From Chitinophagaceae bacterium (GTDB taxonomy: Bacteria; Bacteroidota; Bacteroidia; Chitinophagales; Chitinophagaceae), in assembly GCA_965246935.1 (NCBI GenBank), contig CBDFGC010000006.1:293961-357960 (forward strand): a DNA stretch of 64,000 bases, in the 5' to 3' direction. Under the pieces are notes generated by a model. The model was not told the origin of the DNA, did no database searches, and saw nothing but the letters and a program-made list of their open reading frames with translations. The translations under genes and the position numbers were made by a program. Every line of letters begins with the position of its first letter. The first letter of the stretch is position 1. Of the stretch, positions 23,578-59,907 are shown one piece after another.

Positions 23578-23614
23578 TACATTTTTAAAAGGTTAGGGGA
23601 TGCAAAGTAAGTAT

Positions 23615-23820
23615 AGAAGAAGTTATGAGAGATAAGTTATGAGAGATGAATTGTAAACGAATAGTGATTGTTGCAAATTATGTGTAGAAGAAGAGATGAG
23701 AGATGAGTTATGAGAGATAAGTTATAAAGGGACAGCGATTATTGCAAATTATCCGCAAAGAATACAATTCAGCAACCCATGTCTTATCTCTCATATCTTA
23801 TCTCTCATAACTCATCTCTT
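23615..23820. repeat. Intergenic nested repeat cluster between divergent GH3 and tig genes (gttatgagagatRa tandem copies and their inverted copies; 30-bp ttgcaaattat direct repeat)
   Basis: Forward copies 23622-23649 and 23693-23725, inverted copies 23782-23817 (cttatctctcata...), direct repeat 23661-23694 / 23732-23762. Confidence 0.7.
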
Positions 23821-32553: not shown

Positions 32554-34719
32554 ATGCAGGGGAAACAATTACGAAAATTAGAAGCCGAGCTGTGGCGGGC
32601 TGCCGACCAGCTTCGGGCCAACAGTAAACTAACTGCTTCAGAATATTCAATGCCTGTGCTGGGGCTTATCTTTTTACGGCATGCTTTCAACCGGTTTAAG
32701 AAAGTAAAGGTTGATATTGAAAAGGATTTGCCTACGCACCCGCAACGTGGTAAACGGGCGTTGACCAAGAAAGACTTTGAAGAAAAAAACAGTTTGTTTT
32801 TGCCCGAAACGGCACAGTTCGATTACCTGGTGGCCCTACCGGAAAATACCGATATTGGTGAGGCAATTGATGCCGCCATGAAGGCTATTGAAGAAGCGTA
32901 CGATAACCTGAAAGGCGTACTGCCAAAGAACTTTTCCATTTTTAGCAAAGACCTGCTGCGGGAACTGCTTCGCATTTTTAATAAGGAAGTATTGCAAAAG
33001 GCCGAAGGTGATTTGTTTGGAAAGATTTACGAATACTTCCTCAACAAATTTGCCATGACCGGCGCACAGGAAGGCGGTGAATTTTTTACGCCCATGAGCC
33101 TGGTGCAAACCATTGTAAATGTAATAGAGCCCGACCATGGCATTGTGCTGGACCCCGCCTGCGGCAGTGCCGGTATGTTTGTGCAAACCGGCTATTTCAT
33201 TGAGAGCGAAGGCTTGCGGCCCGCTGAAAAAGTAACCTTTTACGGACAGGAAAAAGCCGAACAAAATACCCGGCTGGCCAAAATGAATATGGCCGTGCAT
33301 GGGCTGGAAGGCAATATACAGGAAGGCAATACTTTTTACGAAGACAAGCACAACCTGGCCGGCAGTGCCGACTTTGTAATGGCTAATCCGCCATTTAATG
33401 TGGATGGCGTGGACAAAGGCAAAGATGCTGTAAAGAAAGATCCCCGCCTGATGCTGGATGGCAAAGTAGCCCTGCCTAAAAATGACAATGCTAACTATCT
33501 GTGGATTCAGTATTTCTACAATTACCTGAAGCCAACCGGAAGGGCCGGGTTTGTAATGGCCAGCAGCGCCTCCGATGCGGGGCATAGTGAACGGGACATT
33601 CGGGAAAAACTGGTATGCACCGGTGCGGTAGATGTAATGATGGCGGTGGGCAATAACTTTTTCTATACCCGTAGCCTTCCCTGCACGTTGTGGTTTTATG
33701 ATAGGGGAAAGGAAAGTCTGAACCAGGATTTACAGGATGATAGAATGAGCAGGATAACGATAGCAAATAAGCAAAATCCTGGCTATCAGGCCATTCATGA
33801 AAATCCTGGTTCAGACAATTTTCGCAGCAAAGACACCGTGCTGATGCTGGATGCCCGCAAAATATACCGGAAGGTAACCAGCAAGGTAAACGATTTTAGC
33901 CCGGAGCAATTGCAAAACCTGATTTGCATTGTAGGCCTGTACCGGGGCGAAAATGAAAAATTTGCTACTACTGTAAAAAACTATTTACAGAAAGCATCCG
34001 ATGCTGCTTTTGCTGCGGTAGATGTTGTGGAACAATGGCAGCAAACAGTACAGCGCATTATTGGCAATGAGAAGATAAAAACCATTAGCGAAACACTATA
34101 CGAAAGCTTAAACAACCTGGAAGGCTACGAACCTGTGCAGCAGTTGCAAAAAGATTTTATAGATGCTGTAAAGAATAAGGCAACCACCGCAGGTTACGGT
34201 TCTACCTCCTCCGCTTTTGGGGGAGGTTGGGTGGGAGCCACCCTCCGTAAGCCATTGGATAAATTAGTAAAAATCCTGCTGGATACCGTTGCTGCTGCCC
34301 AGCGGAATGATGGCCTGAATAAGCTGCCGGCCTGGAAGGCGCTGAACCTGAAAGAAGAACTGGATACCCTGCGCAACCTGCAACAGCAACTAAGCGGAAA
34401 TGTAGAGGAAGAAGAGCCTGGCCTGCTGCATGAGATAGAGTATTATTACAAGCAAGCACACTGGCTTACCAGCCGTTTCCCGGATGGCGTGTATGCCGAT
34501 GTGGAAGGCTTGTGCAAAGTGGTAACGCAAGCCGAAATAGCAACCAAAGACTGGAGCCTGAGCCCCGGCCGTTATGTGGGCGTAGATGCCGCAACGGATG
34601 ACGGCATTGATTACGAAGAACGCCTGGCCGAAATACACATTGAGTTGGAAAGCCTGAACGAAGAAGCCATTACTTTAGCAAATTTGATAAGCGAAAATTA
34701 TAAGGAGTTGGTGGTATGA
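32554..34719 (+). CDS. hsdM: Type I restriction-modification system methyltransferase subunit HsdM (long form, 721 aa)
   Basis: HsdM N-domain, AdoMet motif LDPACGSAGMF, catalytic NPPF (MANPPFNV), C-terminal DWSLSPGRYVG; overlaps hsdS start by 4 nt. Confidence 0.88.
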   Translation: MQGKQLRKLEAELWRAADQLRANSKLTASEYSMPVLGLIFLRHAFNRFKKVKVDIEKDLPTHPQRGKRALTKKDFEEKNSLFLPETAQFDYLVALPENTDIGEAIDAAMKAIEEAYDNLKGVLPKNFSIFSKDLLRELLRIFNKEVLQKAEGDLFGKIYEYFLNKFAMTGAQEGGEFFTPMSLVQTIVNVIEPDHGIVLDPACGSAGMFVQTGYFIESEGLRPAEKVTFYGQEKAEQNTRLAKMNMAVHGLEGNIQEGNTFYEDKHNLAGSADFVMANPPFNVDGVDKGKDAVKKDPRLMLDGKVALPKNDNANYLWIQYFYNYLKPTGRAGFVMASSASDAGHSERDIREKLVCTGAVDVMMAVGNNFFYTRSLPCTLWFYDRGKESLNQDLQDDRMSRITIANKQNPGYQAIHENPGSDNFRSKDTVLMLDARKIYRKVTSKVNDFSPEQLQNLICIVGLYRGENEKFATTVKNYLQKASDAAFAAVDVVEQWQQTVQRIIGNEKIKTISETLYESLNNLEGYEPVQQLQKDFIDAVKNKATTAGYGSTSSAFGGGWVGATLRKPLDKLVKILLDTVAAAQRNDGLNKLPAWKALNLKEELDTLRNLQQQLSGNVEEEEPGLLHEIEYYYKQAHWLTSRFPDGVYADVEGLCKVVTQAEIATKDWSLSPGRYVGVDAATDDGIDYEERLAEIHIELESLNEEAITLANLISENYKELVV

Positions 34720-35912
34720 AATCCAAGGTTTATAAAATAGATGACATTAAAGCTCAAGGAAAGTACAATTTAGTGGGAGGGCCATTTGGGTCAGACTTAG
34801 TATCAAAAGATTATGTCGAGGCTGGAGTTCCAGTTCTCCGTGGTACAAACCTTCCTTTTGACAAAAAGTTTTCTCATGATGATTTGGTATTTGTTTCAAA
34901 TGAAAAGGCTAAAAAATTGAAAGCAAATATTGCGTTTCCTAGGGATATAGTTTTTACACAAAGAGGAACGCTTGGTCAGATCGGCATAATACCAACGGGA
35001 TTCTATGACGAATATGTTGTTTCCCAAAGTCAAATGAAGTTGACAGTTAATGAACAGTTGGCTGTACCTGAATTTGTTTATTATTATTTTAGTTCACAGA
35101 AAGGTAGAAATAGTATAAAGGCACATTCAATTACTTCAGGTGTACCTCATATCAATTTGACCATTTTAAAGAATTTGAAAATATTACTTCCTTTAATTCC
35201 AGTACAACAAAAAATCGTTTCAATTTTATCGGCTTATGATGATTTGATAGAAAATAACTTGAAGCGGATAAAACTGCTGGAGGAGTCCATTAATCTTAAT
35301 TACAATTTATTAAACTCTAAAGAAGATAAATATTGGAGTATTATTAAATTAAATTCTTTGATAGACATTATATCTGGTTATCCTTTTAAGAGCAATTATT
35401 ATAATGAAAATGGCAGGTATAAGATTGTTACGATCAAGAATGTTCAGGATGGATTTTTTATTTCTGAAGCAACAGATAAGATTGATGACATTCCTATAAA
35501 TATGAGTAAAAAAATATTTCTGAATACAGGGGATATAATAATGTCATTAACTGGAAATGTTGGAAGAGTATGTCTTGTCTTTGGTGATCATTATGTTTTA
35601 AATCAACGGGTGATAAAGCTTTCGGTAAAATTGGATACTGATAAAGGATTCACTTATGCGTTGTTACGGGATAAAAAAATGCAAACTACTTTAGAAAATT
35701 TATCAAGTGGTACAGCACAACAAAATTTAAGTCCCGTTAAAATGGGAGAGTTGTTTATTAAGTATCCAACTGCTATCCTGAGAAAAGAATTTAATCAAAT
35801 AACCCTCCCAATGATTGATTTAATTTGTAAGATCAATCAACAAAACACCAAACTCCGTGAAGCCCGTGATATTTTATTGCCAAGGCTAATGAGTGGGGAA
35901 ATAGAAGTATGA
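34716..35912 (+). CDS. hsdS: Type I R-M specificity subunit HsdS (two TRDs)
   Basis: Two target-recognition domains separated by conserved helical spacer; AT-rich as typical for TRDs; coupled to hsdM. Confidence 0.8.
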   Translation: MKSKVYKIDDIKAQGKYNLVGGPFGSDLVSKDYVEAGVPVLRGTNLPFDKKFSHDDLVFVSNEKAKKLKANIAFPRDIVFTQRGTLGQIGIIPTGFYDEYVVSQSQMKLTVNEQLAVPEFVYYYFSSQKGRNSIKAHSITSGVPHINLTILKNLKILLPLIPVQQKIVSILSAYDDLIENNLKRIKLLEESINLNYNLLNSKEDKYWSIIKLNSLIDIISGYPFKSNYYNENGRYKIVTIKNVQDGFFISEATDKIDDIPINMSKKIFLNTGDIIMSLTGNVGRVCLVFGDHYVLNQRVIKLSVKLDTDKGFTYALLRDKKMQTTLENLSSGTAQQNLSPVKMGELFIKYPTAILRKEFNQITLPMIDLICKINQQNTKLREARDILLPRLMSGEIEV

Positions 35913-35920
35913 TGTATTAT

Positions 35921-36023
35921 GTGCCGTAGGTACAACCTGTTTGTAGAAAATCAATTGCCATCCAACGTATTGTGCCACGTAGTGGCTACCTGTTAAATCC
36001 TGTGTACACGCTACAACTAACCC
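35921..36023. repeat. REP-like palindromic elements (variant gccgtaggtacaacctgtttgtag + canonical gccacgtagtggctacctgtt)
   Basis: Core palindrome GCCACGTAGTGGC; same family as arrays flanking the RAYT gene. Confidence 0.7.
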
Positions 36024-36062: not shown

Positions 36063-36476
36063 ATGTTTGACGAAACCAACAAATACAAAACAAACGACCA
36101 TTTCTTTTACATGCCGGGCAGCAGCTTGCCGGAAGTAAGCAAAGCGGTTCCTGCACTACCCGGTGTGTATTATATTATCCGGCTTGCCCGTGGCCATGTA
36201 GATCTTGTTTTTATTGGTAAATCCGGCGCAGGTGCCCAGCTAGGCAATTTAAAAGAAACAATTAGCCGGGGCCTTATCAGCGGCATATCAACCAAAGCCT
36301 CCCAAAGCTTCATACATCGGAAAATGATTGCCGAAAAAATAGATGGGCTTGACATTTACTGGTTTGTAACCATAGATGGCAAAAACAACGATTTACCCGA
36401 ATATGCCGAAGCATTATTAAAACAACGGGTGTACAATACGTATGGCAGGCTACCGCCGTGGAATGCAGAAGTGTAG
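36063..36476 (+). CDS. Hypothetical protein with possible GIY-YIG-like motif
   Basis: PGVYYIIR...LVFIGKSGAG loosely fits GIY-(x10)-YIG spacing; weak. Confidence 0.35.
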   Translation: MFDETNKYKTNDHFFYMPGSSLPEVSKAVPALPGVYYIIRLARGHVDLVFIGKSGAGAQLGNLKETISRGLISGISTKASQSFIHRKMIAEKIDGLDIYWFVTIDGKNNDLPEYAEALLKQRVYNTYGRLPPWNAEV

Positions 36477-36656
36477 ACATGCTATCCTATCTGTCGTTCG
36501 TTCCTAACCGTTTGTAAACAAATGATTACCATCCCCATTCTACAAGCAGGTTGTACCTACGGCACAAAAAACCCATGCACCCATAAAATCTATACAATCT
36601 GCCTCAGTGTAACACTCTGTTTTCAATAAAATAACATCTATCACTCAACACCATTT

Positions 36657-36850
36657 GCCCCGGCGGCTATCTATTTGTAGCATCAGCCGCAGTAATCTCC
36701 TTACGTAATCTGCCACGCAGTGGCTACCTGTTTGTAGCAGAAAACAATGTGATGAATCCACATCATCTGCCACGTAGTGGCTACCTGTTTGTAGCATCAG
36801 CCGTATTAATCTTCTTACGTAATCTGCCACGTAGTGGCTACCTGTTTGTA
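36657..36850 (+). repeat. REP array (4 units, + orientation) immediately upstream of RAYT gene
   Basis: ctgccacgtagtggctacctgtttgtagca x4 with two alternating ~27-bp linkers. Confidence 0.85.
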
Positions 36851-37006
36851 AATAGGCAAATTCCCTTCAATATTTTTTTGCACCTTCGGGATTATCCGTT
36901 TGTATTAAAATGAAAAATGGAATGAGATTTATTTCCTGTCCGGAAAAGATGATATTTTCATACATCGTATGACGTTGCTACCCATTTAACCCATTAAAAA
37001 ATATCA

Positions 37007-37474
37007 ATGGCTAACACTTATACGCAACTTCACGTCCATTTTGTATTCGCTGTAAAATATAGGGCAGCAATAATCGAAGATGGCTGGCGTGAAGAATTGC
37101 ATAAATACATTACCGGTACCGTTCAAAACAATGACCACAAAATGCTGTGTATCAATTCTGTTTCCGATCACCTGCACCTGTTTATTGGTTTCGATACCAA
37201 ACAATCTATTATGGAATTAATGCGGCAGGTGAAAGGCGATAGCGCTGAGTGGGTCAATGACAAACGGTTTACCAAAAGAAAATTTCAATGGCAGGATGGA
37301 TATGGAGCTTTCAGCAATAGCCATTCGCAGATTGATGCAGTTGTAAAATACATTATCCGCCAAAAAGAACATCACCAAAAGAAAACTTTTAGAGAGGAAT
37401 ACCTGAAGATGCTGAAAGATTATGGCGTTGAATATGATGAAAAATATGTTTTTCATGATTTGTTAGATGGATGA
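37007..37474 (+). CDS. IS200/IS605-family HUH Y1 transposase, REP-associated tyrosine transposase (RAYT)-like
   Basis: HVHFVFAVKYR (first His/His region), HuH motif DHLHLFI, catalytic Tyr in VKYIIRQKEHH (cf. IS200 YIRNQ..HH); 155 aa; flanked by inverted REP arrays. Confidence 0.8.
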   Translation: MANTYTQLHVHFVFAVKYRAAIIEDGWREELHKYITGTVQNNDHKMLCINSVSDHLHLFIGFDTKQSIMELMRQVKGDSAEWVNDKRFTKRKFQWQDGYGAFSNSHSQIDAVVKYIIRQKEHHQKKTFREEYLKMLKDYGVEYDEKYVFHDLLDG

Positions 37475-37500
37475 TGATCAACGAAAAACCATGCGCAAAT

Positions 37501-38150
37501 GCTACAAACAGGTAGCCACTACGTGGCAGATTACCTAAGAAGATCAATACGGCTGATGCTACAAACAGGTAGCCCCGCCGGGGCATAATGGTATGGATTC
37601 ATCACATTGTTTTCTGCTACAAACAGATAGCCACTACATGGCAGATTACGTAAGAAGATTAATACGGCTGATGCTACAAACAGGTAGCCACTACGTGGCA
37701 TAATGGTGTGGATTCATCACATTGTTTTCTGCTACAAACAGATAGCCACTACATGGCATAATGGTGTGGATTCATCACATTGTTTTCTGCTACAAACAGG
37801 TAGCCACTACGTGGCAGATTACCTAAGAAGATCAATACGGCTGATGCTACAAACAGATAGCCACTACGTGGCATAATGGTATGGATTCATCACATTGTTT
37901 TCTGCTACAAACAGGTAGCCCCGCCGGGGCAGATTACGGAAGAAGATTAATACGGCTGATGCTACAAACAGGTAGCCACTACGTGGCAGATGATGTAGAT
38001 TCATCACATTTTTTTTGCTACAAACAGGTAGCCCCGCCGGGGCAGATTACGTAAGAAGATCAATGCAGATGATGCTACCACAAACAGGTAGCCACTACAT
38101 GGCAGATGATGGAAGACGATCAATGCAGGTGATGCCTACCTGTTTGTAAC
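37501..38150 (-). repeat. REP tandem array (~11-12 units, 57-58-bp period, minus orientation) downstream of RAYT; CRISPR-like in appearance
   Basis: gctacaaacaggtagccactacgtggcag repeated with two alternating linker types (attacctaagaagatcaatacggctgat / ataatggtatggattcatcacattgttttct); variants with ccccgccgggg core. Confidence 0.85.
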
Positions 38151-38270
38151 AACTAAATAAGGTAATTAATATCCCAGGCATTTGTATATTTACCTATAAG
38201 CTGTTTCGTTTTTTAACCTGTTCAATGTCAAATAGCGATAAAGTAAGATCGTATTAGCCAAATGTGCTGT

Positions 38271-38340
38271 AAGCACTACCTGTTTGTAGAAAATGACAGC
38301 AATTAAATTGTTTTATGCCACGTAGTGGCTACCTGTTTAC
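38271..38340. repeat. REP half-site plus full REP copy
   Basis: cactacctgtttgtag ... gccacgtagtggctacctgttta. Confidence 0.6.
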
Positions 38341-38724: not shown

Positions 38725-41700
38725 ATGCCCTACGAATACTCCGAAGACAAACTGGTTGAGCAAACTGCTATGGATTTGTTCTTCCACCGGCTGGGCTGGG
38801 ATAGAAATTATGCTTTCAATAAAGAAACCTTTGGCGAAGGCAGTTCACTGGGCCGGCATAGCAAATCGGAGGTGGTACTGAAGCCCGTTTTTATGGAACG
38901 GCTACAGGCTTTCAATCCCGGCCTGCCGCAAAAAGCTTACGACGAAGCCTGGGCAAAACTGACAGAAGAAAGCGCCGTAAAATCAGGGGATGAAATCAAT
39001 TTTGAAAAATACCAGTTACTCAGAGACGGCATTCCAGTTGACTTCATTAACCAAAAAGGGGAACCTGTAAAAAATAAAATACTGCGGGTGTTCGATTTTG
39101 AGCAGCCCGACAACAACAAGTTTGTAGCCGTTCAGCAACTATGGATACAAGGGCGGAGCAACCGGGAGCGGCGGCCTGATATTATTGGTTTTGTGAATGG
39201 GATTCCCCTGCTGTTTATTGAACTGAAAGCCGCCCATCGCAAACTGGAAAATGCCTACAACGAAAATTTTTCCGATTATAAAGATGTAATTCCATCGCTT
39301 TTTTATTACAACGCATTTGTGATCCTGAGCAATGGCATCGAAAGCCGCATTGGCAGCGTTACCGGCAGGTACCAGCACTTCCACGAATGGAAACGTATTA
39401 CCGAGGAAGACAACGGCATTGTAGCGTTGGACCGCATCATTGTAGGCGTTTGCGAAAAGCACCGCTTTTTAGACCTGTTCGAAAATTTTATCCTGTTCGA
39501 TACTTCGCTGGGGAAAGTAATGAAACTCATTGCCCGCAACCACCAGTTTATCGGTGTCAATAAAGCCATCGAAAATATCCGGCAAAAAAAGGATATGTAT
39601 GCACATGGCAGCATCAGCCGGGAGGAAAAGCAGCGCCTGGGTGTATTCTGGCACACGCAGGGCAGCGGCAAGAGTTACTCCATGGTTTTCTTTTGCCAGA
39701 AAATTCACCGCACATTTAAGGGCAGCCATACCTTTTTTAATTGTTACCGACCGCAACGAACTGGATACGCAGATATATGGTACATTCAGCGGTGTTGGTG
39801 CCGTGCCGCAGATAAAAGCCGGTGCCAAGGAATCACTAAAAGCGGGCAGCGGCAAGCATTTAAAAGAGTTACTCAGTTCGGAGCATCGCTACCTGTTTAC
39901 CCTCATTCATAAGTTCAACTTTGCAGAAGAGATTACGAGGCGGGATAATATCATTGTTATTTCCGACGAAGCCCACCGCACCCAGGGCGGCAGCCTGGCC
40001 ATGAATCTGCGAAACGCTTTGCCCAATGCTTCCTTCATCGGCTTTACAGGTACGCCATTGTTTAAAGACGACGAATTAACGAGACGCATTTTCGGGGATT
40101 ACGTAAGCCGGTACGATTTCAAACGCAGTGTGGATGATGGTGCTACCGTACCGCTGTATTACGAAAACAGGGGCGAATATTTAGGATTAAAGAATCCGGC
40201 TATCAATCAACAGATACGGGCCATCATTGATGCTGAAACAGAAGACCTGGATAGTGACCAGCGCAGCAGCATCGAAAAATTGTTTGCCAGAGAATACCCT
40301 ATTCTTACCTCCCGAAAGCGACTTGATACTATTGCCAAAGATGTGGTATGGCATTTTTGCAACCGGGGGTATAAAGGCAAAGCCATGTTTGTGGCGCTGG
40401 ATAAACTAACAGCCGTTAAAATGTACGACGGGATTATCCAACACTGGAATAATTACATAGCCCAAACAGAAAAAGAAATAGCCAAAGGCAAATATGGCGA
40501 CCAGGAACTACTGGCAAAAAGCCGGGAACTGGTATGGATAAAAGCAACGGAAATATGTGTGGTAGTAAGCAGCGAGCAAAATGAAATACAGAAGTTCCGC
40601 AAATGGGATCTGGACATTGAGCCACACCGGGAAAAGATGAACACCCAAGATTTGGAAACCCGGTTTAAAGATGAAGCTGATCCCTTCCGGCTGGTAATTG
40701 TTTGTGCCATGTGGATCACCGGTTTTGATGTGCCTACGCTTTCTACCTTATACCTTGATAAGCCGCTGAAATCCCACACGCTGATGCAGGCCATTGCAAG
40801 GGCCAACCGCATCAGCGAAGGCAAAAATAACGGGCTGATTGTGGACTATATTGAAACCTATACTGCCCTGCTGGATGCACTGGCCATTTACGGTTCCAAC
40901 GGGGAGGACGGTGATGGTACAACGCCTGAACTACCGGTAAAGCCGAAGGAAGAACTGATCCGGCAACTGGAAGAAGCGATTACGGCAACAGAACATTTTT
41001 TACAGGATGAAGTAAGTTTCAATCTAACGGAACTGGTAAATGCCACTGCACTGCAAAAGCTGGCTGCACTGGAAAAAGGCATCAATGCCATATATACCAA
41101 CGACGAAACCAAACGTAAGTTTCAAATATTGGGAAGAGCAGTTTTTAAGAAATACAAAGCCCTGCAGCCGGATAAAGTGCTAAACCAATACGCTCCCTAA
41201 GAAGAATGCAATCGATGTAATCTACACCGCAATTGAAGGCAATATCGAGAGTGCTGATGTATCGGAGATCATGAAAAAGATTCAGACAGTTGTGGATGAA
41301 TCTATTGAAACGATGGCATCCGAGCAACCATCACAGGATGAGGGCAAAATCATTGACCTGAGCGGATTGAATTTTGAGTTGCTTGAAAAGTACTTCTCAA
41401 AGCTGCAACACAAAAACATAGCCGTTCAGTCGCTGAAGGATATGGTGGAAAAAAGATTGAAAAAGATGCTTGAACGCAACCCACTGACTATTGATTATTA
41501 CAAGCGTTACCAGGAAATTATTGATGCCTATAATCTTGGTAAAGATGAAGCGGTGATTAAGGAAACTTTCCGCAAACTGATAGAACTGATAAATGATTAT
41601 TCAGCCGAAGAAGCAGATACAAAAAGAGAAGGTCTGACGGATGAGCAAAAAGCGATATTCGATATTTTACGGCATGGCAAAGAACTGGCAGAAAAAGAAA

Positions 41701-41951
41701 AGAATGCCATCAAAGAAATTGCTATCGATTTGTTGGCAGCGTTGAAAAAAGAGAAACTAAAAGTGGAGCAATGGTCTGATAAATCGGCTACAGCGGCGGC
41801 CGTTTTTAAAACAGTAAACGACACCTTGTTTGAAGCATTGCCCTATCCTACTTACCATACTAATGATATTGACCTGAAAACAAACCTGGTGTACAACCAT
41901 CTGAAAAAGCAATACTATGGTGGCGGGCAAAGTATTTATGGCTCGTATTGA
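38725..41951 (+). pseudogene. hsdR: Type I restriction enzyme R subunit HsdR, disrupted by two single-base homopolymer frameshifts (near 39733-39738 and 41195-41197)
   Basis: HsdR_N nuclease domain (IIGFVNGIPLLFIELK), helicase motif I GSGKSYSMVFF, motif Ia-II FLIVTDRNELD / VISDEAHRTQ in +1 frame, C-terminal DUF3387-like KKNAIDVIY...VVDESIE in third frame; three ORFs 38725-39912, 39530-41200, 41271-41951 jointly ~1075 aa. Confidence 0.8.
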
Positions 41952-42667: not shown

Positions 42668-42816
42668 TGAAAAAGAGTTTTACAACGGAATGACATTATT
42701 GAAAGGCAATTAGATAAAGACATGGTAAAAAATAATTTCAATATCAATTTATTCGACGACAGTTGCTCCAAACCTCCCTTTAGGGCAATGTCCTTAATTT
42801 AAGAATTGTAGTAGCT

Positions 42817-43408
42817 ATGCGCCGTAGGTGCAACCTGTTTGTAGCAAACAGACATCATTGACGTTGGTGGCTGCCACGTAGTGGCTACCTGATCAGAGAA
42901 GGGGGTAGCCACTACGTGGCAATGATTCCCTTTTTCGTTTTGTTTTCTACAAACAGAAAGCCCCGATGGGGCTTATCTTAATGACATTGGCTTAAAGGGG
43001 GCTAACGGTTCACCTTCACATTTGATGCCTACTCCAGGATTTACGCATTTGTCTATTGTTTTGGTGGCACAAATCAAGTTCCCCCTTTAGAGTCTGTCCC
43101 GGACCCCAGCCGGTTGGTTAGGGGCAACCAACCCCGGATAAAAACATCCTGTAACTGAAGAAGTTAGACAACTTTACTTAGTAAAGTGGTCAAAATAACT
43201 TGTACAATAGAAGCGTGATATTACCCCAGCCTTAGCAAACAAAGAGGCAAAGGGAATCATTGCCACGTAGTGGCTACCCCTTCTCTGATCAGGTAGCCAC
43301 TACGTGGCATGCACCAACATCAATGATTTCTGTCTTCTACAAACAGGTTGCACCTACGGCGCATAACTGATACATTAATCCTTATCTTAATGACATTGCC
43401 CTAAAGGG
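42817..43408. repeat. Composite REP-containing inverted-repeat structure: ~120-bp arms (42817-42960 vs 43243-43364) each containing a REP inverted pair, flanking a ~280-bp centre with further hairpins; flanked by ~40-bp direct repeats at 42711-42750 and 43570-43609
   Basis: Reverse complement of 42817-42960 matches 43245-43364 almost base-for-base; cttatcttaatgacattgSc.taaagggg direct copies at 42971-43000 and 43381-43408; module ccccctttagagtctgtcccggacccc shared with MITE at 13106. Confidence 0.7.
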
Positions 43409-58830: not shown

Positions 58831-58863
58831 ATGCAAAAGTTTTCAAAATGAAAACTTTTGCAT
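58831..58863. promoter_or_regulatory. Perfect 15-bp-arm palindrome (probable HigA operator) overlapping a Bacteroidota-type -7 box TAggTTTG just upstream of higB
   Basis: atgcaaaagttttca-aaa-tgaaaacttttgcat; TAGGTTTG at 58863-58870, ATG at 58876. Confidence 0.6.
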
Positions 58864-58875
58864 AGGTTTGTAAAT

Positions 58876-59211
58876 ATGAAAGTCATTGTAAAAAGAGTCA
58901 TTCTATTTTATACTGACAAATATCCACAAGCCCAAACAGCTTTATTAGTTTGGTATAGTGAGTTTCTGAAAATGGAATTTCAAAATTTCAATGAGTTAAA
59001 AGCGGTATATGGAAATGCAAGTATTGTAGCTAACAACCGGGTTATTTTCAATATTAAAGGAAATGATTACAGGCTGATTGTTTCAATAAACTTTAAACAA
59101 TCGGCAGCTTATGTAATTTGGTTTGGTACGCATAAAGAGTACGGCAGAATCAATGCTGAAATTATAAAGTCTGACACTGACATTTTACATTACAAAACAA
59201 AAGAGCTATGA
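58876..59211 (+). CDS. higB: HigB-family type II toxin (RelE/ParE superfamily)
   Basis: ~110 aa; FNIKGNDYRLIV...WFGTHKEYGRI matches HigB_toxin family; 4-nt overlap with downstream HTH antitoxin. Confidence 0.7.
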   Translation: MKVIVKRVILFYTDKYPQAQTALLVWYSEFLKMEFQNFNELKAVYGNASIVANNRVIFNIKGNDYRLIVSINFKQSAAYVIWFGTHKEYGRINAEIIKSDTDILHYKTKEL

Positions 59212-59564
59212 ATTGGAAAGTGATAAAAACAGAAGCTGAATATCAGGAAGCCATAAAAAGGACAATAGCTATTTTTCATGCAGAAGAAGACACCCAAGAA
59301 GAAGATGAGTTAGCCCTGTTGATATTACTGGTAAATGACTATGAAAATAAACATATTCATCTACCTCAGATTGACCCATTGGAGGTTATTAAATTAAAGA
59401 TGGAAGAACGTGGCCTCAAAGCAAAGGATTTGGAACCTATTATAGGAAGCAAAGGGCATGTTTCCTCCATCCTTTCCGGTAGACGTGAGATAACATTAAA
59501 AATGGCTCAAAAATTGAGGATTTTTTTTCAGTTGCCTGCTGAAATATTCTTACCTGCAGCTTAG
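59208..59564 (+). CDS. higA: HigA-family antitoxin (XRE-type HTH)
   Basis: C-terminal HTH GSKGHVSSILSGRREITLKMAQKL; toxin-first higBA order. Confidence 0.7.
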   Translation: MNWKVIKTEAEYQEAIKRTIAIFHAEEDTQEEDELALLILLVNDYENKHIHLPQIDPLEVIKLKMEERGLKAKDLEPIIGSKGHVSSILSGRREITLKMAQKLRIFFQLPAEIFLPAA

Positions 59565-59671
59565 GGTTGTGCGTAATTTTATAGACACCTGATGCTGTTT
59601 AGTATTTTAACACTTGTTGGAAAATAGATAAAAAATATTAAAGTATCGATTTTGTGTGCTGCAGGCACATT

Positions 59672-59907
59672 CTGTTTGTAGGCATATGGGTGATTAGGTG
59701 TTTTATGCCACGTAGTGGCTATCTGTTTAGCCACCGTGTACCTGACTTGACAGCGTTTGTTTAAAAGCTAAACAACTTCCTGATGTATTATTTCAAACAA
59801 CACTTGTTCCTTTACTTTAAAGTGATCAAACAGGTAGCCACTACGTGGCATGATGGCGTTTTTAAAGCCTTCATTGTTACAAACAGCTTGTACCTACAAC
59901 ACAATAG
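59672..59907. repeat. REP cluster: inverted REP pair (59706-59729 +, 59827-59850 -) plus degenerate copies
   Basis: gccacgtagtggctatctgtttag ... caaacaggtagccactacgtggca ... acaaacagcttgtacctacaac. Confidence 0.7.

Follow-up and report, generated by a model that had tools for sequence, protein, structure and literature searches.

A Y1 HUH Enzyme Gene of IS200-like Type and Its Associated Hairpin Repeats Probably Form a REPtron-like System in Bacteroidota

Organization of the Locus

We analyzed a 64,000-nucleotide stretch of the genome of a Chitinophagaceae bacterium (GenBank assembly GCA_965246935.1, contig CBDFGC010000006.1, positions 293,961 to 357,960), called the window in what follows. 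Between the hsdS and hsdR genes of a Type I restriction-modification (R-M) locus, it contains a gene for a Y1 HUH enzyme with an array of short hairpin repeats on either side. The initial annotation described this as a REPtron, i.e., a RAYT-like transposase gene flanked by oppositely oriented arrays of repetitive extragenic palindromic (REP) sequences. Judged from the sequence, that annotation read the organization of the locus correctly and the family membership wrongly. Pfam matches to hsdS and hsdR bear out the placement (Table 1).

A covariance model of the repeat unit (R1), built from 147 units, was used to scan the window with a threshold of E ≤ 0.05, and 32 units were found. The model recovers the four-unit rightwards array upstream of the gene, the eleven-unit leftwards array downstream of it, and the dispersed copies at the sites already pointed out. 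Beyond the sites listed in Table 1, no further units are found in the 64 kb at this threshold. All of the units in the window lie between open reading frames (ORFs).

Table 1. Position of the enzyme gene, the repeat units and the neighboring genes in the window.
Feature	Position	Strand	Description and evidence
Y1 HUH enzyme gene	37007–37474	+	155 aa; IS200-like TnpAY1 'subclass 1.2' type; Pfam and NCBIfam matches, motifs
Upstream array, 4 units	36654–36854 (units at 36654, 36709, 36766, 36823)	+	covariance model, 20–45 bits
Downstream array, 11 units	37499–38106	-	covariance model, 34–46 bits
Degenerate unit at outer end of downstream array	38122–38152	+	covariance model, 16.5 bits, E 0.03
Doublet	35918–35994	+	full unit gtgccGTAggtac+AACCTGTTTGTAG, 25-nt spacer, short-tailed GCCACGTAGTGGC+TACCTGTT; 44 and 23.7 bits
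Single full unit, inverted partner of the 35918 unit	36537–36568	-	37.9 bits
Doublet	38261–38338	+	full unit gtgctGTAagcac+TACCTGTTTGTAG, then short-tailed GCCACGTAGTGGC+TACCTGTTT; 41.2 and 25.6 bits
Inverted pair of doublets, order + + - -	42816–42975	both	covariance-model matches
Partial inverted copy of the 42816 cluster	43262–43365	both	short-tailed +, short-tailed -, full - unit
Inverted pair of doublets (+ + ... - -), about 95 nt apart	59653–59905	both	23–28 bits
137-aa ORF	36063–36476	+	ORF list; flanked by the doublet at 35918 (+) and the unit at 36537 (-)
hsdM (32554–34719) and hsdS (34716–35912), Type I R-M	32554–35912	+	Pfam N6_Mtase/HsdM_N, Methylase_S
hsdR, over three reading frames	38725–41951	+	Pfam; tblastn with intact 1076-aa homologue

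The Enzyme

The enzyme gene was first picked out as an IS200-type transposase gene, and a profile search agrees that it encodes a Y1 HUH enzyme. The ORF matches Pfam Y1_Tnp (PF01797) with an E value of 7.6e-27 (94 bits, cutoff 23) and the NCBIfam equivalog for IS200/IS605 transposases (NF033573) with 73.9 bits (cutoff 55). The HuH and catalytic tyrosine motifs are those that had been noted by eye. The HuH is H55-L-H57, in the DHLH starting at residue 54, and the tyrosine is in Y115-IIR-Q119-KE-H122-H123; there is also a W95-Q96 pair. None of the catalytic motifs is disrupted, and little or no variation is seen in them among 25 homologues, Q119, H122 and H123 each being at least 90% conserved. 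The middle residue of the HuH is V, I, L, T or A among the homologues. With an HUH motif, a catalytic Y, a Q four residues on, and scores above the curated cutoffs, the window enzyme has the attributes of an IS200/IS605 TnpA, which is TnpAY1 class 1.

Membership in the RAYT family did not survive comparison. The signature of class 2 (RAYT/TnpA-REP) is Y-x3-N-P (Quentin et al. 2018, PMC6006769), and the window enzyme has Y-x3-Q-x2-HH. The NCBIfam RAYT model NF047646 (REP_Tyr_transpos), on which E. coli RayT scores 179 bits, does not match the window ORF, and BLASTP of the window enzyme against E. coli RayT gives E = 2. The RayT structure 4ER8 is unmatched at E ≤ 1, whether by the single sequence or by a profile of the 25-sequence family. 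The same profile matches ISDra2 TnpA at 4e-13, IS608 at 8e-10 and Sulfolobus TnpA at 5e-9, and these are the closest solved structures. By these comparisons, the window enzyme is not a RAYT family member.

By its Y motif, WQ pair, length and C-terminal tail, the window enzyme is an IS200-like TnpAY1 protein of 'subclass 1.2', an assignment made on the described motifs. That subclass is defined by Y-x3-Q-x2-HH, WQ, DH[IV]H, a length of about 148 aa, a specific C-terminal domain, and occurrence in Bacteroidetes and Cyanobacteria (Quentin et al. 2018, PMC6006769). The window ORF has YIIRQKEHH, W95-Q96, 155 aa, and a tail of the form TFxEEY...YD..Y.F that is conserved in its homologues; in its HuH, L stands where the definition has I or V (DHLH against DH[IV]H). 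In the survey, subclass 1.2 is related to IS200, is found only in Bacteroidetes and Cyanobacteria, and is described as 'not sharing IS properties' (IS, insertion sequence); its copy number is low, at about 1.7 per genome, and the copies are 36% identical to one another (PMC6006769). Its Table 1 enters 'no' for this subclass in the REP column. The automated REP search behind that table accepted only fully paired stems of 7–20 bp with GT[AG]G 0–2 nt to their 5' side (PMC6006769), and because of that stem length, 5-bp hairpins of the kind described below cannot pass the filter. For a group called 'RAYT-like IS200 Group 3', neither duplicates nor copies on plasmids were found and 16-mers are abundant in the flanks, with no repeat structure described (Bertels et al. 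2017, PMC5581495). It is probably the same clade as subclass 1.2, although that equivalence is one that we infer.

By tblastn, there is one copy of the Y1 gene in the window, and the ORF list has no tnpB-sized ORF beside it. We take the gene not to be plasmid-borne, because the protein matches only 2 of 72,556 plasmid records, and both are non-mobilizable replicons of about 600 kb. One of that size, from Bernardetia, carries the homologue along with the housekeeping genes dapF, radA and uvrA. Many homologues of 70–90% identity occur in Bacteroidota metagenomes; those with a named source come from Chitinophagaceae, Agriterribacter, Mucilaginibacter, Runella and Niabella. A sister clade at 43–52% identity carries the name 'Bacteroidales bacterium'. 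Between genera, the homologues are 10–30% diverged. The gene itself is probably not an IS-type mobile unit. The contigs bearing homologues are mostly 0.6–3 kb long, and some homologues carry the Joint Genome Institute (JGI) label 'REP element-mobilizing transposase RayT'.

The Hairpin Unit

The unit consists of a 5-bp stem with C-G as its closing pair, a 3-nt loop that is usually GTA, and then a single-stranded tail, [T/A/G]ACCTGTTTGTAG. The core at the locus is GCCACGTAGTGGC with GTA in the loop, as originally noted. The 14-mer CTACCTGTTTGTAG occurs 23 times with no more than 2 mismatches against 0.24 expected, a count reached in none of 100 shuffles. Within the window, the stem takes the forms gccac/gtggc, gcccc/ggggc, gtgcc/ggtac, gtgct/agcac, gcgcc/ggtgc and gtgct/ggcac.

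Pairing in the stem was assessed on 89 distinct metagenome sequences that match GTA-N6-ACCTGTTTGTAG-MA, a pattern blind to the stem. The test is not circular, because the pattern was chosen on the loop and tail only. Stem cells are paired in 86.7% of cases compared to 63.7% in shuffles, and there are 92 double-sided stem changes compared to 23.7 ± 3.7 (0 of 500 shuffles reach it). When the register is slid, pairing is 38–49%. At least four of the five stem pairs form in 74 of the 89 units, and these 74 use 24 different stem arms. Viral contigs served as a noise control; they gave 45 pattern matches, none with the full five-pair stem. The co-variation supports the view that the stem would matter as structure only. 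The bases flanking the stem are also linked, being A..G in 44 of the 74 units and T..T in 24. The base right after the stem is G in 51, T in 27 and A in 8 of the 89.

The likeness to enterobacterial REPs that had been seen in the unit does not go far. In a canonical REP, a GC-rich stem of 7 bp or more has GT[AG]G 0–2 nt to its 5' side. Here, the stem is 5 bp, and the GTAG that is conserved family-wide sits 10–13 nt 3' of the hairpin, not 0–2 nt 5' of it. GTAG does occur at the foot on the complementary strand, in the T subtype only. Rfam at its gathering thresholds has no match to the unit. In the literature searched, no description of the motif or of the arrays was found, the motif search yielding only unrelated primer sequences, and neither a corresponding motif nor a corresponding taxon is in the supplements of PMC6006769.

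Doublets and Arrays

Dispersed copies are built as doublets. A full-tailed unit with a variable stem is followed, 52–58 nt on, by a short-tailed unit on the same strand. The tail of the second unit ends early, after about TACC to TACCTGTT(T), with conservation stopping about 8–9 nt 3' of the foot compared to 13 nt in full-tailed units. The stem of the short-tailed unit recurs within each locus or locus group examined: GCCAC/GTGGC in the window, GCTCC/GGAGC in the contigs with G-type units, and GCCCC/GGGGC in other contigs with T-type units (these subtypes are defined in the next section). The spacer of the doublet is fixed in length and free in sequence. Doublets are found singly, in tandem, or as inverted pairs (+ + - - or - - + +). 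Folded as single-stranded DNA, the inverted pair at 42816–42975 makes a long REPIN-like hairpin of -44.4 kcal/mol (z -8.0).

Both arrays around the gene are made of tandem doublets, and their tails point toward the gene. The upstream array has a 57-bp period, with spacers in the order A, B, A. The downstream array has a 56–60-bp period, and its distal units are the most diverged. Since spacers A and B alternate in it to make a 115-bp super-unit (TRF period 115, 90–93% matches), it is a tandem array of doublets; the TRF periods at the locus are 57 and 115 bp. Within the window, spacers A and B are found only in these arrays, six times each and with inverted copies on both sides of the gene. A two-type alternation of units and spacers is also present in arrays of the unrelated contigs L112, L089 and L090, and the same-strand spacing of units in the metagenome loci is quantized at 50–58 nt. 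The quantized spacing and the alternating arrays indicate that the doublet is the unit of amplification.

Association of Gene and Repeat across Bacteroidota

It had been foreseen that a repeat restricted to the enzyme locus would undo the REPtron interpretation. It is not restricted. The window has three further sites, and among the 80 metagenome loci listed, which were retrieved through the repeat alone and to which our counts refer, 72 have no tnpA-like gene, so the repeat is dispersed. The other eight have a Y1 homologue at 43–66% identity. Units also flank homologues in Mucilaginibacter ginsenosidivorax, in a metagenome contig, and in Runella, where three upstream units have a 57-bp period. 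Besides the window, 10 loci belonging to several Bacteroidota orders show the association, all in the inverted arrangement seen here but for one exception downstream. Of the 11 loci with the gene, 10 have their closest downstream unit in inverted orientation with respect to it. In all nine loci having upstream units, the nearest of these is co-oriented with the gene, and the tails face the gene. Units bracket the gene on both sides in the window and in L002, L056, L094, L097, L112, L116 and L119; in L001 and L003, they are on the downstream side only. In L001 (M. ginsenosidivorax CP042437.1, 5468–6200), the last ~110 nt of the gene and the inverted doublet that follows are repeated about 430 bp on.

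The clade of the enzyme tracks the subtype of the unit. The 43–52% clade has G-type units (A, stem, GACC...), and the 60–90% clade has T-type units (T, stem, TACC...). Units avoid coding sequence: 6 of 179 lie within runs of 150 or more codons uninterrupted by a stop, and such runs make up 76% of the DNA. The metagenome loci have 13 further clusters in 340 kb beyond the cluster through which each was retrieved, or about 3.8 per 100 kb, and the window has 2 in 64 kb beyond the neighborhood of the gene. By extrapolation rather than by count, a genome of several Mb would hold on the order of 100–300 clusters.

One comparison of orthologous loci was discarded as evidence of unit mobility. L129 (1764–4216) has a 2.4-kb segment missing in its orthologue L057 (at about 2560–2657), containing a nucleotidyltransferase-like ORF, a second small ORF, a pair of hairpin units and an ATPase-like ORF. 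This indel, the only large one seen among the metagenome loci, is bounded by direct copies of a different repeat of about 100 nt, and it says nothing on the mobility of the units. By eye, the two small ORFs resemble an MNT/HEPN-like toxin–antitoxin pair.

A Probable REPtron-like System on an IS200-like Enzyme

We consider it likely that the locus is a REPtron-like system on an IS200-like enzyme, that is, a lone gene for a Y1 HUH endonuclease/ligase together with a cognate family of non-autonomous hairpin repeats. It would work like a REPtron because of the inverted flanking arrays, the intergenic dispersal and the recurrent association in Bacteroidota. Hence, the initial REPtron annotation stands in its inverted-array geometry, dispersal and gene–repeat association, now recurring at 10 other loci, and falls in its RAYT enzyme.

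Y1 HUH enzymes recognize a hairpin plus a single-stranded flank, as in IS608, ISDra2 and TnpA-REP. By analogy to the TnpA proteins of IS608 and ISDra2 and to E. coli TnpA-REP, the window enzyme would attach to the hairpin in single-stranded regions, such as those at a replication fork, and would read the loop and tail. Y115 would cut near the hairpin using a metal site of H55, H57 and Q119, and the DNA would then be rejoined. Doublet-sized pieces might in this way be excised and reinserted. Reinsertion beside an existing unit would make tandem arrays grow, and insertion elsewhere would make new intergenic copies. The fixed-length, sequence-free spacing of the doublet would be compatible with a dimer of IS200 type that grips a left-end-like and a right-end-like hairpin together. 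The right-end cleavage site of IS608 is about 10 nt 3' of the hairpin foot, which is near the 8–13-nt tail here.

A broader proposal has, in our estimate, about an even chance of being right. The subclass-1.2 enzymes would be a separate lineage, domesticated or very long-lived, with its own REPIN-like system across Bacteroidota (Chitinophagales, Sphingobacteriales, Cytophagales and Bacteroidales). The loop CGTAG and the 12-nt tail, its recognition elements, are nearly fixed in the sampled orders and the stem varies freely, a logic that would be the reverse of that of classical REPs. The direct doublet would be what replicates, handled by a dimeric enzyme. If this is so, the transition from IS to REPtron is placed inside the IS200 branch itself, and it is explained why the survey scored subclass 1.2 as lacking REPs. 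To our knowledge, nearly all that is established about REP/RAYT biology comes from class-2 enzymes of Proteobacteria. The same genome-level arrangement now appears on an IS200-like enzyme outside Proteobacteria, which bears on whether Y1 enzymes were domesticated once or several times.

Several observations weigh against the REPtron-like interpretation. Sequence comparison places the enzyme among bona fide IS200/IS605 transposases. Folding was among the checks suggested at the outset, and while the inverted cluster described above folds strongly, one hairpin alone is of low stability (-4.4 kcal/mol, z -1.4). Downstream of its gene, L090 departs from the inverted arrangement. A scan of a genome collection with the 21-mer GCCACGTAGTGGCTACCTGTT gave a single match, in a Parafilimonas metagenome-assembled genome, where the match is to intergenic inverted doublets with no tnpA. 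Finally, the Bernardetia homologue (52% identity) has only two variant units beside the gene, with the diverged tail AATATTTGTAG, and no others in 74 kb; therefore, repeat expansion is not universal. These two units (L175, Bernardetia sp. NZ_CP147018.1, 19780–19975) are inverted and upstream, and read GTTGC-AGN-GCAAC followed by AT-rich [A/G]CAATATTTGTAG. A second tblastn place exists in the same record.

Alternative Explanations

The locus could be an ordinary selfish IS of the IS200/IS605 kind whose gene still transposes, the units being its ends and its palindrome-associated derivatives, which would be like miniature inverted-repeat transposable elements (MITEs). The protein invites this, scoring above the NCBIfam IS200/IS605 equivalog cutoff and having ISDra2, IS608 and Sulfolobus TnpA as its nearest solved relatives. 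So do the two direct hairpins of the doublet, which are like a left end and a right end, and the partial duplicate of the 3' end of the gene in Mucilaginibacter. We nevertheless think it unlikely, since the hairpins bracketing the gene are inverted and not direct in 10 of 11 loci, there is one gene copy in 64 kb, and the homologues are 10–30% apart between genera rather than near-identical mobile copies. Mobilizable plasmids lack the Y1 gene (72,556 records). The published descriptions point the same way: the subclass has 'no IS properties' and about 1.7 copies per genome, 36% identical (PMC6006769), and 'RAYT-like IS200 Group 3' has no duplicates or plasmid copies (PMC5581495), if that is the same clade as we infer. 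At the other extreme, a canonical class-2 RAYT/TnpA-REP with canonical GTAG-REPs would account for the inverted architecture, and the complementary strand of the major local variant does have GTAG at the hairpin foot (GTAG-CCAC-TAC-GTGG). In most family members, the foot base is G and the complementary strand reads GTCG, not GTAG; the stems are 5 bp, not at least 7 bp. Canonical RAYT membership is contradicted by the absence of Y-x3-NP, of an NF047646 match and of similarity to E. coli RayT, and it is very improbable.

The units might also belong to the host, as RNA motifs, terminators, protein-binding sites or other regulatory or structural elements independent of the Y1 enzyme, the gene merely landing nearby. 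Their confinement to intergenic DNA (6 of 179 in long frames) and the conservation of loop and tail across orders, as for the site of a host factor, would be expected in that case. It would leave unexplained why the gene is within a few kb in 8 of 80 listed loci with a fixed geometry around it, why the unit subtype tracks the enzyme clade, and why units are on both strands as inverted pairs. Stems of 5 bp without a T-run would make poor terminators, Rfam has no match, and a hairpin with a single-stranded flank is the known form of Y1 HUH recognition; a host element is, on balance, quite improbable. The 57-bp arrays resemble a CRISPR array in repeat length (28 nt), spacer length (29–30 nt) and the palindromic nature of the repeat. 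We give that identification next to no credence. Spacer redundancy rules it out, there being only two spacer sequences, alternating and with inverted copies on both sides of the gene. The same repeat also makes isolated doublets elsewhere, and the neighbors examined are R-M genes, small ORFs and a HigB/HigA pair, although no search aimed at cas genes was made.

Relation to Known Systems

The REPtron-like reading of the locus can be set against the systems it most resembles. Like the REPtron of E. coli RayT and the REPINs of Pseudomonas, it has a Y1 HUH gene, probably low-copy, bracketed by inverted short palindromic repeats. The repeat is intergenic, in the loci sampled it is dispersed and outnumbers the gene, and it occurs in clusters and arrays; inverted pairs fold into long hairpins, and the gene is absent from mobilizable plasmids. 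It differs in its IS200-like enzyme (Y-x3-Q-x2-HH, no NP, no detectable similarity to RayT) and in that its 5' foot carries no conserved GT[AG]G. Its building block is a direct doublet, and the arrays are direct rather than alternating in orientation. Classical REPs are species-specific. Here, what is conserved, across orders, is the loop and the 12-nt 3' tail, and the 5-bp stem varies freely even inside a single genome.

The closest proteins are those of IS200/IS605 elements such as IS608 and ISDra2, in which a subterminal hairpin and nearby single-stranded bases are recognized, and the two direct hairpins of the doublet recall their left and right ends. The locus departs from such an element in its inverted flanks, in having no second gene copy in the window and no sign of multiple identical copies, in lacking an adjacent tnpB-sized ORF or tnpB, and in repeats that, in the loci sampled, far outnumber the gene. 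The proteins of subclass 1.2 are alike in YI..Q.EHH, WQ, a length of about 150 aa with a C-terminal tail, low copy number and presence in Bacteroidetes; the difference is the 'no' for REPs in the survey (PMC6006769), whereas units with 5-bp stems are found here. TnpAY1 subclass 2.6, which occurs in Bacteroidetes, and class 3 are described with weak non-GTAG hairpins ('atypical secondary structures') that have extra genome copies (Quentin et al. 2018). By description, their proteins are different, with NH[LIV]H and YIH[QN]NP at about 179 aa in subclass 2.6 and Y-x4-Q in class 3.

The features of the unit have practical consequences. REP searches that demand stems of at least 7 bp miss these units, and automated CRISPR finders might call the arrays on account of their 28-nt repeat and 29–30-nt spacers. 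The flanking arrays probably break short-read assemblies; most contigs with a Y1 homologue are about 1 kb. The near-invariant loop and 12-nt tail make in vitro mapping of cleavage straightforward, and such near-invariant recognition elements could yield a new sequence-specific HUH tag.

The Neighborhood of the Locus

The placement of the Y1 gene in an R-M locus looks incidental, as homologues adjoin unrelated genes. The pieces of hsdR are at 38725–39738 in frame 1, 39638–41197 in frame 2 and 41196–41948 in frame 3, and are 78–82% identical to the intact homologue. These two frameshifts mean either a pseudogene or an assembly error. The nearest retrievable relative (HsdM 75% identical) has other cargo between hsdS and hsdR and no units, and it is too distant to define the ends of the insertion. 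In this related R-M operon (L173, 11260–11800), the hsdS–hsdR gap has a different tandem repeat of about 129 bp in at least four copies, followed by PDDEXK_3 and Fic/RhuM genes. The gap looks like a recurrent landing site for cargo.

Just upstream of the arrays, the units at 35918 and 36537 have the same stem variant, and their geometry around the 137-aa ORF is like that around the Y1 gene. In this arrangement, the ORF resembles cargo enclosed by two paired repeats. Neither it nor ORF96 has a family match in Pfam, NCBIfam or PHROGs; by eye, the 'GVYYI...VFIGKSG' of the 137-aa ORF recalls a GIY-YIG motif.

Farther to the right, the segment 42960–43260 is about 300 bp without an ORF of at least 60 aa, enclosed by partially inverted copies of one repeat cluster. 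The linker TGATCAGAGAAGGG is at one end of it and its reverse complement at the other. The cluster at 59653–59905 sits between a HigB/HigA pair and an uncharacterized ORF. The pair, at 58858–59564 directly upstream of the cluster, consists of a HigB-like toxin (Pfam HigB_toxin, E 2e-27) and a helix-turn-helix antitoxin. A tandem repeat apart from the hairpin unit lies at 23601–23819, with a 71-bp period, 2.1 copies, 14-bp sub-repeats AGAGATAAGTTATG, and an inverted copy at 23778–23819.

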